Source of the DNA: a virus | IMG/VR virus record: IMGVR_UViG_3300009124_000003 | Length of the DNA stretch: 64,000 nt | Reading direction: 5' to 3' (one strand) | Shown: positions 1,952 through 38,216 of the stretch, one piece after another | How the letters are laid out: every line of letters starts with the position of its first letter | Numbering within the stretch: position 1 is the first letter of the stretch | Translations under genes and position numbers: made by a program | The notes under the pieces: model-generated | The model's database searches: none | What the model saw: only the letters and a program-made list of their open reading frames with translations | Told to the model about the DNA's origin: nothing

Positions 1952-2968
1952 TTAGGCGAGAGCCAGGACCCGGTCACGGATCGACTCGTGGGCCGTGATC
2001 TTGCCCTTCGAAGCAACCGACCCGAGGGTCATGCTGTCGAGCGCAGCCTTGTCGGCGTCGAGCCCACGACCATGGTCGAAGTGCTCGGTGATGGCCTGAA
2101 GGAGCGACCAGGCGTTGTTGCCGTGACCACCAGCGTTCTTGCGGCTACCGAGCCGACTGCGGACGCTGACGATGTTCTCGTCACGGGTACGGGCCTTGCG
2201 GTCGGTGTCGGCCTTCTTCTCGGGCCAGATGTCGTCCAGCACTCGGGAGATGTCAAAGTCCGAGACCGGAGCGGCGAGGAGTTCCTCGGCCTCGGCCTTG
2301 AAGGCGACAGCCCACTCGTTGGAGATGCCAAGTACAAGACCTGCCTCAGCAAGCTTGTTGGCAACGTTGGTGGTGTGGCGAGCGGTGAACATGCTCTGGG
2401 CCGACATGCGGGCGAACCGAACGGTGTTGGCGCAGACGGCGCGAACGTCGGTGTTGATGTAGCGGATCGGGGTGGTGCCGTCGTGCGACGACTCAACCAC
2501 GAGGTTGCGCTTGATGACGTCGTTAACACCGAGCGGGTCGATGACGAGATCTTCCATGTTGATGGTTGCGAAGAAACGCTTACCGTCGTTCAAGACACCG
2601 AGGGTGTCGATGACAGCGTCGCCCATCGACGAGCCAACAACAGCAAGAGCCTTCTCAAGAACGACATCGTTCTGCACGACAGCGTAACGACCCTTTACGG
2701 TTTCCCACGGCTCGAACCTTCCGGTCTGCTTGGAAACACGACCCGTCACGAATCGGTCCTCGACCAGTTCCTGAGGGGTAACGTCGCCAGGATCTCCTGC
2801 GTAGCAAGGCCGAAGAACGACTTCGTAGTCAGCGTTGGCAGCACGGAGCATGGTGTGTGCGTCCTGGTCGCCGTCCATGGCGACGCCGAGGCGGTGCCAG
2901 GGGAGTCCCCGCTTGCTGTTGAATGCGAAGCTTGCGTCGCCGTTGATCATTTCGAGTTCGTGTGACAT
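1952..2968 (-). CDS. DUF932/DUF945-family phage/plasmid protein
   Basis: PWHRLG, YAVVQN, GVLNDGKRFF, SSHDGT, VRAVCANT, RHT pattern typical of this family. Confidence 0.85.
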   Translation of the reverse strand: MSHELEMINGDASFAFNSKRGLPWHRLGVAMDGDQDAHTMLRAANADYEVVLRPCYAGDPGDVTPQELVEDRFVTGRVSKQTGRFEPWETVKGRYAVVQNDVVLEKALAVVGSSMGDAVIDTLGVLNDGKRFFATINMEDLVIDPLGVNDVIKRNLVVESSHDGTTPIRYINTDVRAVCANTVRFARMSAQSMFTARHTTNVANKLAEAGLVLGISNEWAVAFKAEAEELLAAPVSDFDISRVLDDIWPEKKADTDRKARTRDENIVSVRSRLGSRKNAGGHGNNAWSLLQAITEHFDHGRGLDADKAALDSMTLGSVASKGKITAHESIRDRVLALA

Positions 2969-3049
2969 GTGTGTTTCCTTTCGGGTGTTTGTTTGTTGTT
3001 CACATCTTACGGTGTGGCTGTGACATTCACAACTTTACCGTCTGAGATT

Positions 3050-3079
3050 ATTCTATATCAATGATCTGACTACTGTCAA
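3050..3079 (-). promoter_or_regulatory. SigA-type promoter for the DUF932 gene
   Basis: Minus strand TTGACA-N18-TAGAAT, followed by an A/C-rich leader and SD AAAGGA. Confidence 0.7.
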
Positions 3080-3090
3080 GTAGTTTAATC

Positions 3091-3238
3091 TGAGCACGTC
3101 TACGAGGAGTCGAACCTCACTTCCTTCGGTCGATTGCCGCCGACCAACCGGGTTTCCACCACCGCCCCTAACGCTGCTAGCGGCAACTAGCTTCGCCAAT
3201 AGGGCGTATCTTCCATCTTCACGAAGGTGGTAGACGTG
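3091..3238 (-). ncRNA. Candidate structured ncRNA with a tRNA-like acceptor/T arm and kissing loops
   Basis: 9-bp closing stem CACGUCUAC/GUAGACGUG; T arm GAGG-UUCGACU-CCUC; loops UUGCCG and CGGCAA are complementary; has its own promoter; no ORF. Confidence 0.7.
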
Positions 3239-3244
3239 AGAGTT

Positions 3245-3274
3245 ACCTTAGCACGCGTCAAATCATCGTGTCAA
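3245..3274 (-). promoter_or_regulatory. Promoter of the candidate ncRNA
   Basis: TTGACA (3274-3269)-N18-TAAGGT (3250-3245), with TG upstream of the -10. Confidence 0.75.
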
Positions 3275-9768: not shown

Positions 9769-10401
9769 ATGACTACTCAACAAGAAAAGCTTAACATCGA
9801 GTTTCCCGCAGAGGTTTGCCAGGAGTTGCCAAAAGCAGGCCGTCGGCTTACCTATGTTCCTGTGGCCGAGGTTATCACTCGGCTCAACGACGTTCTTGGT
9901 ACTGCCGGTTGGTCGTACACCGTGGAAGCGCGCTGGACTGACACGCACGAGTCGAAGTACGGCACCGAGGTTTGGGCCATGACTCACGTTCGCCTCGTCG
10001 CCACGATTGACGGCCAGCAGTGTGCCCGTGATGGCATTGGCGGGTACAATACTTCTAAGCCGGGAATGGATTACGCTGACGGCTGGAAGTCCGCCACGTC
10101 CGAGGCTCTCAAGAAGGCTGCTCAGGCGCTTGGTGTTGGCCTGCACCTTAGCCGCAGCGAGGAAGCTATCGCTATGGCTGCTGACCTTACTGTCGAGCGT
10201 GCGGATGCTGCTGAGCTTCAGGCATTTATTGCTGCGATGAAGGAAGCTAACTCGGTTATTGCGGGTGCTGTGAAGCAGCGCGCTCAAGAATTGGGTGCTA
10301 GCTGGAACGACATGCGCGCAGAGCACCTTACTGAGCTTAAGGCTATGGCTCAGGAGTACGCCGACAATGGTGTCGGTTCTACTGCGGAGCTACAAGCCTG
10401 A
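9769..10401 (+). CDS. Rad52/Rad22-family single-strand annealing protein (Sak-like)
   Basis: LTYV..AEVITRLNDVLG..GWS, RDGIG, KSATSEALKKAAQALGVGLHL. Confidence 0.88.
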   Translation: MTTQQEKLNIEFPAEVCQELPKAGRRLTYVPVAEVITRLNDVLGTAGWSYTVEARWTDTHESKYGTEVWAMTHVRLVATIDGQQCARDGIGGYNTSKPGMDYADGWKSATSEALKKAAQALGVGLHLSRSEEAIAMAADLTVERADAAELQAFIAAMKEANSVIAGAVKQRAQELGASWNDMRAEHLTELKAMAQEYADNGVGSTAELQA

Positions 10402-11603: not shown

Positions 11604-12725
11604 ATGAAGATAGGATTTGCGACAGTAGACTGGTCAAAGAACGTCCGAGATGAACAGCTTGACATGCCTGCCATGGGCGGTTCGAACTGGATTCGTTTCG
11701 GTCAATACTTGCCGTACATGCAGCAGATCACTCCTGTGCATGGCTCTCCCGTTTGGAACTCTAAGAAGCAGATCTTCGGTGTTGACACCGAGTGTGGTTG
11801 GGACATCGGCTCTTACGATGACAGCGATGAGCGCTACGACTTCGACATCCCCGTGATCTTCATTCAGCGCATCATGGACCGTGGTATCGGTGAGCAGATC
11901 GCTATCGCACGCTCCAACGGTCAGATCATCATTCAGGACATTGACGATGACTTCTGGGCGATCCCAAAGTGGAATAGTGCGTACTGGCACACTCACCCAT
12001 CGAAGAACCCGGAGTCCAACATCAACTTCTACGCTGAGGCACTTGCCAACAGTAACCTGATCGTTACCTCCACGCCTCACCTCACTGAGAAGATGGGGCA
12101 GATCAACGACTTCGTTGTGCAGATCGAAAACCATGTTGATGTTGACCGTTTTGCTCAGGCCCGCAAGGACATGGAAGAGTGGGACGGTGTACGTATTGGA
12201 TGGACCGGATCTGTTGGTATGAAGACAGTTGACCTTGATTGCGTCAAGTCGTGGGCCGGTATGTTCAACTGGCACCACATCGGCCACGTGGATATTGTTC
12301 CGTTGACCGGTGTAATTGGCGAGCATGTTAACGTAAGCACTTCCCCACTTTGCGCTTCAAGCGAATACGCCAAGAACTTCTTGTTTGATGTTGGCGTTGT
12401 GCCTCTGAAGCACGACGCCGAGTTCAACGCCGCCAAGTCCTTTATCAAGGGACTTGAGTACAGTGCCGCTGGTCTACCGTTCGTTGCAGCTCCGGCACCC
12501 GAGTACATCCGTTTCAACGAAGAGCAGGGCGTCGGCTTTATCGCTTATGACAACAAGGCAAAGCACTGGATTAAGCACCTCAAGGCTCTCGTCAACGATG
12601 CAGATTATCGTGAGTTCCACGGAGTCGCCGCTCAGGAAAAGGTCCGTCATACTTACGACGTCCGCATTGGTGCCGCTAAGCTGGAGGGCCTGGCTCTTCA
12701 GGCTCTGCAACACTCGGACTTCTGA
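11604..12725 (+). CDS. GT-B fold glycosyltransferase
   Basis: DIDDDFW, VTSTPHL, IENHVD, IGWTGS, GVVPL..FNAAKSFIKGLEYSAAGLPFVA; SD AGGAGA before ATG 11604. Confidence 0.88.
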   Translation: MKIGFATVDWSKNVRDEQLDMPAMGGSNWIRFGQYLPYMQQITPVHGSPVWNSKKQIFGVDTECGWDIGSYDDSDERYDFDIPVIFIQRIMDRGIGEQIAIARSNGQIIIQDIDDDFWAIPKWNSAYWHTHPSKNPESNINFYAEALANSNLIVTSTPHLTEKMGQINDFVVQIENHVDVDRFAQARKDMEEWDGVRIGWTGSVGMKTVDLDCVKSWAGMFNWHHIGHVDIVPLTGVIGEHVNVSTSPLCASSEYAKNFLFDVGVVPLKHDAEFNAAKSFIKGLEYSAAGLPFVAAPAPEYIRFNEEQGVGFIAYDNKAKHWIKHLKALVNDADYREFHGVAAQEKVRHTYDVRIGAAKLEGLALQALQHSDF

Positions 12726-16048: not shown

Positions 16049-16579
16049 ATGGATATTCAAAACATTGCTATTGCAGACCTCAAGCCTTATCAGTTCAGTA
16101 CAACGTACCTTGTTCGTTCAGACTTCCGCAGTTTGACAGACTCGATCCGCCGTTTTGGATTGCTGAACCCTCTGATTGTTCGCAAGGACACGATGGAGGT
16201 TATTGACGGTAAATACAGGTTGAGCGTTCTGCATACTGATGGTGTTGAAACTGCGCCGTGTGTGGTCCTGGATCTAGATGAAGCTGATGCTATGGTTCTC
16301 CATGTTCAGGTTAACCGATACCGTTCAGAAGTCATCACTAAAGACCTGTCAAGGCTAGTGAAGCGAATTATCCGTACCCGAAAGTACACTCAGGACGAGC
16401 TAATGGCGCTTTTCTCAACAACGGAAGACGAGTTTCAGGTTTTGCTTCAGGGCACTGTTATTCGTCAGCGTAACATTCCTGAGCACACATATAGCCATGC
16501 TTGGGTTCCTGTCGAGTCTGACTCTCCTGAAGATTTCAAGATTGAGCGACCGACCGGTAAGCCTGAACAGAAAAAGTAG
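16049..16579 (+). CDS. ParB-like protein (IbrB-like)
   Basis: SIRRFGLLNPLIV, VIDGKYRL, VQVNRYR; leaderless start at 16049. Confidence 0.82.
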   Translation: MDIQNIAIADLKPYQFSTTYLVRSDFRSLTDSIRRFGLLNPLIVRKDTMEVIDGKYRLSVLHTDGVETAPCVVLDLDEADAMVLHVQVNRYRSEVITKDLSRLVKRIIRTRKYTQDELMALFSTTEDEFQVLLQGTVIRQRNIPEHTYSHAWVPVESDSPEDFKIERPTGKPEQKK

Positions 16580-38140: not shown

Positions 38141-38216
38141 TCCTGGGTAGCACAATTGGCGGTGCGTTCGACTGTTAATCGAAGGGTTGTAGGTTCGAGT
38201 CCTACCCCAGGAGCCA
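38141..38216 (+). tRNA. trnN: tRNA-Asn (GTT) with encoded CCA
   Basis: Acceptor TCCTGGG/CCCAGGA, D arm GCAC/GTGC, anticodon arm TTCGA-ctGTTaa-TCGAA, T loop TTCGAGT; promoter TTGCCA-N18-TATCAT. Confidence 0.97.

Follow-up and report, generated by a model that had tools for sequence, protein, structure and literature searches.

The question raised by the locus described here is what kind of RNA is encoded where, in a phage-like genome, a promoter is followed directly by sequence predicted to fold into the top half of a transfer RNA (tRNA), together with two hairpin loops that are exact complements of each other. The locus occupies positions 3091-3274 of a 64,000-nucleotide (nt) stretch of viral DNA, IMG/VR record IMGVR_UViG_3300009124_000003 (the window), and lies in a divergent intergenic region of 380 base pairs (bp). 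A preliminary description had listed its sequence elements, all of which are present, and had treated the RNA as a tRNA-like molecule without precedent. We read the RNA, which has a length of ~146 nt as predicted from sequence, as a variant, carried by actinophages, of the type that phage T4 rnaC represents ("tRNA top half plus loop-loop lock"), and as a previously uncatalogued family. That it is real, and more than a chance fold, is confirmed by covariation in three of its helices.

The RNA is read from the minus strand, to which all coordinates of its parts refer, with position 3238 as nt 1 and the fold spanning 3238-3095. The −35 hexamer TTGACA is located at 3269-3274 and the −10 hexamer TAAGGT, of the TAnnnT type, at 3245-3250, separated from the −35 by 18 nt and from the first paired base by 6 nt. 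Closing helix P1 is predicted to form between the 5′ strand CACGUCUAC (nt 1-9, 3230-3238) and its exact complement GUAGACGUG (nt 136-144, 3095-3103). Its 5′ strand runs into the 23-nt junction strand J1/2 (nt 10-32, 3207-3229), composed of a conserved CCACCUUC-UGAAG and a variable part, and then into long arm b (nt 33-76, 3163-3206), which comprises helices of 6, 5 and 5 bp, a 2-nt bulge and a 2×2 internal loop, and is capped by the loop UUGCCG (3186-3181). Hairpin c, GGU-GGAA-ACC with a GNRA loop (nt 79-88, 3151-3160), is followed by short arm d, GGUCG-G-CGGCAA-U-CGACC (nt 94-111, 3128-3145), with a 5-bp stem and an 8-nt loop whose segment CGGCAA (3139-3134) complements the arm b loop exactly. 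The purine-rich, Shine-Dalgarno-like junction J(d/T), GAAGGRRGU (nt 112-120, 3119-3127), has possible partners in the CCUUC of J1/2 and in the 3′ half of the next element, the T-arm-type hairpin GAGG-UUCGACU-CCUC (nt 121-135, 3104-3118). The T hairpin abuts P1 without a spacer, to give 9 + 4 = 13 stacked pairs, and the 3′ tail reads CUCA (3091-3094), not CCA, as first described; in a second lineage of homologues it reads CUAC, the common part being CU.

For the single sequence the fold has a z-score of −2.6, a loop-loop complement of at least 6 nt arises in 4 of 2000 dinucleotide shuffles, and the T-loop motif GGUUCRANYCC in 12 of 20000. Decisive over this z-score is the comparative evidence. 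Homologues were collected by going from the DUF932 protein encoded next to the RNA to its contigs and from these to a covariance model, and additionally by a pattern scan of metagenomes and by way of a neighboring peptide of 40 amino acids (aa). The resulting set comprises 14 copies, 10 of them distinct, all metagenomic and from two unrelated genomic contexts. In the alignment of the ten distinct homologues, 99.4% of 480 pair cells hold a standard pair and nine pairs show double-sided changes, spread evenly over P1, arm b and arm d with three in each; none of 500 shuffles gave as many, and slid alignments gave 0-2 such pairs. The alignment was fitted to the covariance model, yet the homologues are 75-99% identical and align unambiguously in the covarying helices. 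These nine compensatory pairs thus place the fold beyond chance. Within P1 all cells are paired and three of nine pairs are compensatory, which bears out the 9-bp closing helix that had been proposed; the abutting T stem is invariant. Long arm b has 98.8% of its cells paired and three compensatory pairs, and short arm d has compensatory changes in three of its five stem pairs (GGUCG/CGACC versus GACUG/CAGUC) beneath an invariant loop. The loop of hairpin c alternates between GGAA and GGGA, so that the GNRA form is kept, and one of its stem pairs changes from G-C to G.U in L185 and L184; both changes fit the hairpin. The preliminary description had suggested that stems and loop pair be checked for covariation: the stems P1, arm b and arm d pass this check, and for the loop pair it speaks neither for nor against, UUGCCG and CGGCAA being exactly complementary and the same in all ten variants. 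A short hairpin that it had placed between the closing helix and the long arm is not confirmed, the pairing there being ambiguous and without covariation. J1/2 has competing pairings, namely a CUU/AAG hairpin, CACC:GGUG and CCUUC:GAAGG, none of which covaries; the sequences of the latter two are invariant across the variants, and CACC:GGUG rivals hairpin c in energy models.

The promoter is conserved along with the RNA. TTGACA is kept in all copies of both lineages, and the −10 hexamer occurs as TAAGGT, TAAAGT, TATAGT or TAYGAT at the same place (a consensus promoter scan missed TAAGGT, of which 3/6 bases match TATAAT). Spacers differ, while the −10 and the first paired base are always 5-6 nt apart in both genomic contexts. 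With this distance fixed, transcription should set in at the first base of P1 or next to it, and the start is likely to lie at or within 1-2 nt of 3238, as had been proposed from the −10 spacing. The only long frame across the RNA, with ~48 codons open in the window, meets a stop in L002 and shifts between lineages; a protein-coding reading was rejected, the frame not being conserved. Five metatranscriptome runs contain at least 55% of the RNA's sampled words, and one metatranscriptome contig spans 2826-3221 and joins the RNA to the 5′ region of the DUF932 gene, which lends modest support to expression of the RNA. Judged by these sequence features, a separately transcribed, promoter-driven, non-coding and structured RNA is supported.

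Species 1 RNA of phage T4 has been known since the 1970s. The tRNA region of T4 encodes two small stable RNAs of unassigned role (PMC3014915). We compared our RNA with T4 rnaC (species 1 RNA, "RNA C"; NC_000866 70908-71046, 139 nt; L193 4909-5047), which is not in Rfam. In the fold of T4 rnaC, a 5-bp T arm with the loop UUCGAAU abuts a 7-bp acceptor-like helix that contains two U-U mismatches; the apex of its long arm, UUGACG, is the 6-nt complement of the loop CGUCAA in the hairpin directly before the T arm. Both loops are invariant in five Tevenvirinae genera, in two of which the long-arm stem has been replaced. The two RNAs are alike in being phage-encoded and ~140 nt long, in having a long arm and a later hairpin where a tRNA has D and anticodon arms, and in the order of their modules: acceptor-like helix, long arm, short hairpin and T arm. 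Their loop pairs read UUGNCG/CGNCAA, with five of the six pairs identical and the sixth changed from A-U to C-G on both sides; for random 6-mers, an identity of at least 5/6 has, by simple arithmetic, a probability of ~0.005. Given the same module order and near-identical complementary loops in T4, the RNA can no longer be said to lack precedent. The differences concern the minihelix, 7 + 5 with two U-U mismatches in T4 and 9 + 4 in the actinophage RNA, and the setting: the T4 copy sits in a tRNA cluster beside rnaD and tRNA-Arg, whereas the actinophage RNA has a promoter placing +1 at its start and no tRNA within several kb. The actinophage RNA also has an extra GNRA hairpin and the 23-nt junction strand, and the hosts are Actinobacteria-type as opposed to Enterobacteria.

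Two side observations concern the loops. In the rnaC homologue of Klebsiella phage KaAlpha (L196 127-266) the complementarity between apex and second hairpin extends over ~15 nt, and the minimum-energy fold has a single long helix in place of two kissing hairpins. The long-arm loops also resemble anticodon loops, which we take to be those of tRNA-Gly and tRNA-Val, with U-U-GCC in the window (3181-3186) and U-U-GAC in T4, and the partner loops equal the matching codon followed by AA (GGC-AA, 3134-3139; GUC-AA in T4).

Known classes of tRNA-like or self-associating RNA do not accommodate this RNA, which for transfer-messenger RNA (tmRNA), tRNA-Sec and YrlA agrees with the preliminary description. 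Rfam shows no match in the region, whether gathering thresholds are applied or E values up to 10 are allowed, the models of tRNA, tRNA-Sec and tmRNA included, and ARAGORN reports no tRNA or tmRNA at default settings or with introns allowed. By both programs, a cloverleaf with D arm, anticodon arm and 7-nt anticodon loop is absent; hits to very relaxed ARAGORN models were rejected as spurious, as they contradict the covarying helices. tmRNA possesses a 12-bp stack, the alanine identity pair G3:U70, CCA, pseudoknots and a tag frame. Our RNA resembles it in building an acceptor/T minihelix from the two ends of a larger RNA that has no anticodon arm, but is without G3:U70, CCA, pseudoknots or a tag frame ending in a typical degron. 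tRNA-Sec is ~95 nt long and carries a UCA anticodon arm, a 6-bp D stem and a long variable arm. Here the likeness is the 13-bp acceptor/T stack (9/4 or 8/5 in tRNA-Sec, a contiguous 9 + 4 in the RNA), and the differences are that RF01852 finds no match at E up to 10 and that such arms are absent from the covariation-supported fold. YrlA is likewise a non-coding RNA with a tRNA-like T arm, found in actinobacteria and their phages. The tRNA-like module of Mycobacterium smegmatis YrlA is cleaved by RNase P and has CCA added, and the YrlA ends form a Ro60-binding stem (GNCGAAN0-1G motif) at the position of the anticodon stem, the "acceptor" being a closed stem-loop (PMC4201824). In our RNA it is the acceptor-like helix that is formed by the ends, which amounts to a permuted topology, and neither the 34 window open reading frames (ORFs) scanned with Pfam nor the called genes of the homologous loci contain a Ro60/TROVE domain. 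A GGCGAAG in arm b that matches GNCGAAG is not conserved (GGAGAUU in L002). Identity with YrlA was rejected on the permuted topology and the absence of Ro60. In phi29-like podoviruses the packaging motor cannot do without packaging RNA (pRNA), one of its parts. With pRNA, ROOL, GOLLD and OLE our RNA shares complementary loops on one molecule that could drive oligomerization, and a phage setting; unlike pRNA it is dispensable, being absent from the syntenic contig L141, it has a tRNA-type minihelix, and the phage's terminase is T4-type, while ROOL and GOLLD are much larger and no Rfam family matched. The marks of a riboswitch or cis-regulatory leader, a fixed class of gene downstream and an expression platform, are absent: the downstream genes differ, and neither a terminator nor an alternative that sequesters a Shine-Dalgarno sequence was seen.

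The T hairpin fits GGUUCRANYCC, and in nine of the ten variants the loop varies solely at tRNA positions 57 (G/A) and 60 (U/C), with the T-arm consensus G53, U54, U55, C56, R57, A58 and C61 kept. L183 and L187 deviate, and a competing helix exists. These two copies (L183 1330-1488, L187 931-1089) differ from their nearest relatives mainly in the T-loop and in the 5′ junction strand, altered to CCGCCUUUGUGAGAAGACG..., and they also carry a C-C mismatch in arm b; another copy, L190, has an uncompensated U-U mismatch. The joint change in L183 and L187 may be either joint decay or a hint of contact between T-loop and junction, like that between tRNA D and T loops. The tract AAGGRRGUGAGG (3115-3126, nt 113-124) looks like a Shine-Dalgarno sequence in lengthened form, and the CCACCUUC of the 5′ junction like its anti-Shine-Dalgarno counterpart; after the purine tract at 3115-3126 no start codon stands at a usable distance, and the likeness may be a coincidence of purine-rich helices or may mark a ribosome-related feature.

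The distribution of the RNA was examined starting from its neighborhood in the window. The DUF932 gene (1952-2968, minus strand; Pfam E = 5e-38) lies downstream, and an ORF of 895 aa on the plus strand occupies the opposite flank of the intergenic region. L141 keeps the order DUF932-recA-dCTP deaminase-thioredoxin-methylase, with a DUF932 protein 77% identical to that of the window, and lacks the RNA. Homology between L141 and the window restarts exactly past the 3′ tail of the RNA, at 3090 (GAUAAAACUACUUGACA), so that the cassette boundary is sharp; in L141 (3483-3770) the place of the RNA is taken by the apparent end of a coding frame, with its stop at ...GCAAGUGA, just before the DUF932 promoter. 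In lineage 2 (L143, L144 and L183-L192) the RNA is found in different, GC-richer DNA, the RNAs of the window and L144 being 91% identical. The order there is the terminator of the previous gene, promoter, RNA, ~20 nt, a Shine-Dalgarno sequence, an ORF for the 40-aa membrane peptide and a terminator, and every contig fetched via this peptide carries the RNA. The syntenic L141 without the RNA and the 91%-identical RNA in unrelated flanks lead us to the conclusion that, on genomic context, the RNA is an accessory cassette moving between phages of estuarine actinobacteria, with no constant neighbor gene. The association with DUF932 that had guided the original search strategy was dropped on account of the DUF932 relatives at 55-77% identity that have no RNA upstream: some homologues were indeed reached by that route, and lineage 2 lies elsewhere.

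The public runs that contain the RNA stretch are estuary metagenomes. Blastn of the intergenic region and megablast, both against INPHARED, gave no match, and neither did an exact 24-mer search or a DUF932-based search of IMG/VR; pattern searches of IMG/VR returned one viral contig, L015, which is identical in sequence to L002, and two loose patterns returned coding-sequence false positives only. A pattern scan of 185,579 GTDB species genomes with the conserved blocks found no host copy, its 11 hits all being false by the covariance model. The lineage 2 RNA belongs to a 20-kb field of ORFs of 40-130 aa with long intergenic gaps and an adjoining SNF2 helicase gene, in which ten neighbor proteins had no PHROG hits and neither PHROG nor Pfam revealed a phage hallmark; it is phage-like by layout only. 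Its promoter has an upstream box, ATGTTACAGTTT, in common with at least three other promoters of the field. In L191 the four box sites, one of them at the RNA's promoter, lie at 9775-9803, 10350-10378, 12198-12226 and 16238-16265, 8-14 nt before TTGACA, with 0 expected by chance, and the boxed promoters look like a co-regulated (early?) class belonging to an uncharacterized element.

The window itself has a GC content of ~52% and no near relative among the 50,697 phage records of INPHARED (blastn and megablast). Its genes include those for RecA, Rad52, a Cas4-like nuclease, a ParB/PAPS-reductase and a class II ribonucleotide reductase, as well as a T4-type large terminase, portal, S78 protease, HK97-type capsid and baseplate J protein, by which gene content it is a phage-like genome; the host type is Actinobacteria (WhiB, leaderless genes). 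The DUF932 gene has a separate promoter, TTGACA-N18-TAGAAT (3050-3079, minus strand; 11/12 matches in the consensus scan), which is conserved in the RNA-less L141, marks the downstream border of the RNA cassette and lies outside the RNA proper. Three metatranscriptome contigs stop at 3046, 3033 and 3022, near the start predicted for this promoter. Its 5′ untranslated region (UTR) of ~75 nt (2969-3079 region, minus strand), kept in L001, L002 and L141 together with a GUGAAUGUCAC-type hairpin region, may act as a cis-regulatory leader for the DUF932 gene. The only tRNA of the window is a tRNA-Asn(GUU) with encoded CCA (38141-38216). The A of this CCA doubles as the A of an ATG (GGAGCCATGG), a possible start of the next ORF, and 3′ processing of the tRNA could thereby yield a near-leaderless mRNA. 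In L002 (3035-3130) and L015 (12312-12407; minus strand) ARAGORN calls a 96-nt "tRNA-Asp" on the opposite strand of the DUF932 coding region, which is probably spurious.

How the RNA would act can be pictured from its parts. We give about an even chance to a stable ~146-nt rnaC-type RNA that is handled by tRNA enzymes and acts in trans as a tRNA look-alike, with most of the weight on its being a stable RNA of the rnaC type and far less on its acting as a decoy. The transcript would begin at the first base of P1, which would stack end to end on the T hairpin to give a 13-bp acceptor/T-like minihelix, with a multihelix body in place of the D and anticodon arms. A 6-bp loop-loop helix, UUGCCG:CGGCAA, would lock this body or join two copies. 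Taking the processing of M. smegmatis YrlA (PMC4201824) as precedent, host tRNA enzymes may act on the minihelix: 3′ trimming would occur at or near the conserved C after the helix, which would also free the RNA from any read-through transcript, and CCA addition and T-loop modification would be possible. In trans, the RNA would then be a non-decoding tRNA look-alike that occupies or diverts a host factor recognizing the top half or elbow of tRNA. The two functions put forward in the preliminary description, an anticodon-nuclease decoy and self-assembly, stay hypothetical.

Several observations weigh against this picture. The covariance model scores 7 bits at most on T4 rnaC with filters off, and there is no significant match to rnaC or rnaD; at this score the relationship to rnaC is architectural, the blastn search of the intergenic region against phage records gave no match and so none to T4, and shared descent is unproven, so that the likeness may reflect distant homology or convergence. 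The invariance of UUGCCG and CGGCAA means that the kiss has no covariation in the ten variants, and the same is true of the invariant T stem and the nearly invariant GNRA stem, all three being in line with the proposed fold. The T-loop of L183 and L187, CUCGCAA, falls outside the tRNA consensus, and an alternative helix, GGRRGU/ACYCCU (3105-3124, nt 115-134), which is 93% paired with one A-U/G-C/G-U pair, excludes the T hairpin. As the main fold this helix was rejected, three of its pairs being broken in L183 and L187 while the T stem persists; it is a possible alternative conformer. Arm b, with ~16 bp, and arm d, with 5 bp, differ by ~11 bp, and an intramolecular kiss would need a sharp bend, at the bulge or the internal loop of arm b, on account of this inequality; an intermolecular kiss, in a dimer or ring, would be equally possible. 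In the lysine riboswitch a bent long arm does reach a shorter arm in a 6-bp intramolecular kiss. The 3′ end is CUCA or CUAC and not CCA, while the phage's tRNA-Asn encodes CCA, and the metatranscriptome evidence consists of contigs, which show neither strand nor ends. Finally, in lineage 2 the RNA lies within the 5′ leader of a small ORF, which fits a role in cis.

Such a role in cis is a live rival, although we consider it on balance unlikely. HK022 put and EAR RNAs make RNA polymerase terminator-resistant. As a cis-acting 5′ leader the RNA could likewise confer terminator resistance on the polymerase, or shield the 5′ end against decay, or govern how the next gene is translated, and it always follows a promoter immediately, in the same orientation as that gene. 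In lineage 2 the ~20 nt to the Shine-Dalgarno sequence of the 40-aa ORF contain no intervening promoter and the contigs fetched by the peptide all carry the RNA, and in the window the metatranscriptome contig links the RNA to the DUF932 5′ region with no terminator after the RNA. However, the two downstream genes, a DUF932-recA operon and a 40-aa membrane peptide, are unrelated, the DUF932 gene is served by a strong promoter and a 5′ UTR of its own, which work in L141 without the RNA, an expression platform in the form of an alternative terminator or Shine-Dalgarno sequestration is not visible, and for T4 rnaC, the RNA most similar in design, the record annotation gives a small stable RNA that is free. 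Self-assembly, also live and like the leader role not fully exclusive of a trans-acting tRNA look-alike, strikes us as rather improbable: by analogy with phi29 pRNA and its loops, the loops would pair between molecules, so that several tRNA-like minihelices are displayed on a closed dimer or larger ring. In favor, the loops match perfectly and do not vary, the unequal lengths of the arms that bear them disfavor an easy intramolecular contact, and natural RNA homo-oligomers exist in ROOL, GOLLD and OLE (PMC4201828, PMC12286853). The absence of the RNA from L141 nevertheless speaks against a pRNA-like part of the packaging motor, and the lysine riboswitch shows that a kiss from long to short arm within one molecule is feasible.

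Two further explanations fare worse. A translation-active derivative of tRNA or tmRNA, processed, provided with CCA, aminoacylated and entering the ribosome, would account for the 13-bp stack, the conserved C at the discriminator position and the T-loop consensus of most variants; it is very unlikely and largely refuted, ARAGORN and Rfam being negative, the relaxed models being at odds with the covarying helices, and a free anticodon loop, G3:U70, a degron-type tag frame and CCA all being absent. A non-functional sequence, be it a chance fold, a decaying tRNA remnant or a small protein-coding gene, is scarcely credible. The narrow distribution over two lineages, the uncompensated changes in L183 (arm b C-C and T-loop) and L190 (U-U) and the ~48-codon frame open in the window could be taken in its favor, but nine compensatory pairs against 0/500 shuffles, 91% identity of the RNA across unrelated flanks, a conserved promoter and a frame that is not conserved all contradict it.

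An rnaC-like design thus recurs in phages of another bacterial phylum, where it is driven from a promoter of its own and behaves as an accessory cassette that is mobile. As far as sequence comparison goes, this suggests that the rnaC-type design is a recurrent, selected phage RNA device and no mere peculiarity of T4. That the two loop pairs differ by one compensatory change gives a first hint, across families, of a role for loop-loop pairing. Going further, rnaC-type RNAs could conceivably be one ancient pan-phage class in which a codon-anticodon-like loop-loop lock serves as a programmable decoy or sensor, an idea that we hold to be improbable as it stands. In such a class, opening or closing of the lock, or pairing between molecules, would confront a host factor with a tRNA top half accompanied by a mimic of an anticodon or codon; a tRNA-targeting defense nuclease, the ribosome and a tRNA-modifying enzyme are candidates for that factor. 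The actinophage family is compact, has a +1 start and offers natural variants (the L183 T-loop, the GNRA alternatives), which makes it convenient for work on structure, oligomers and partners that could inform rnaC as well. If true, the pan-phage class would make the 50-year-old question of T4 species 1 RNA open to comparative genetics.

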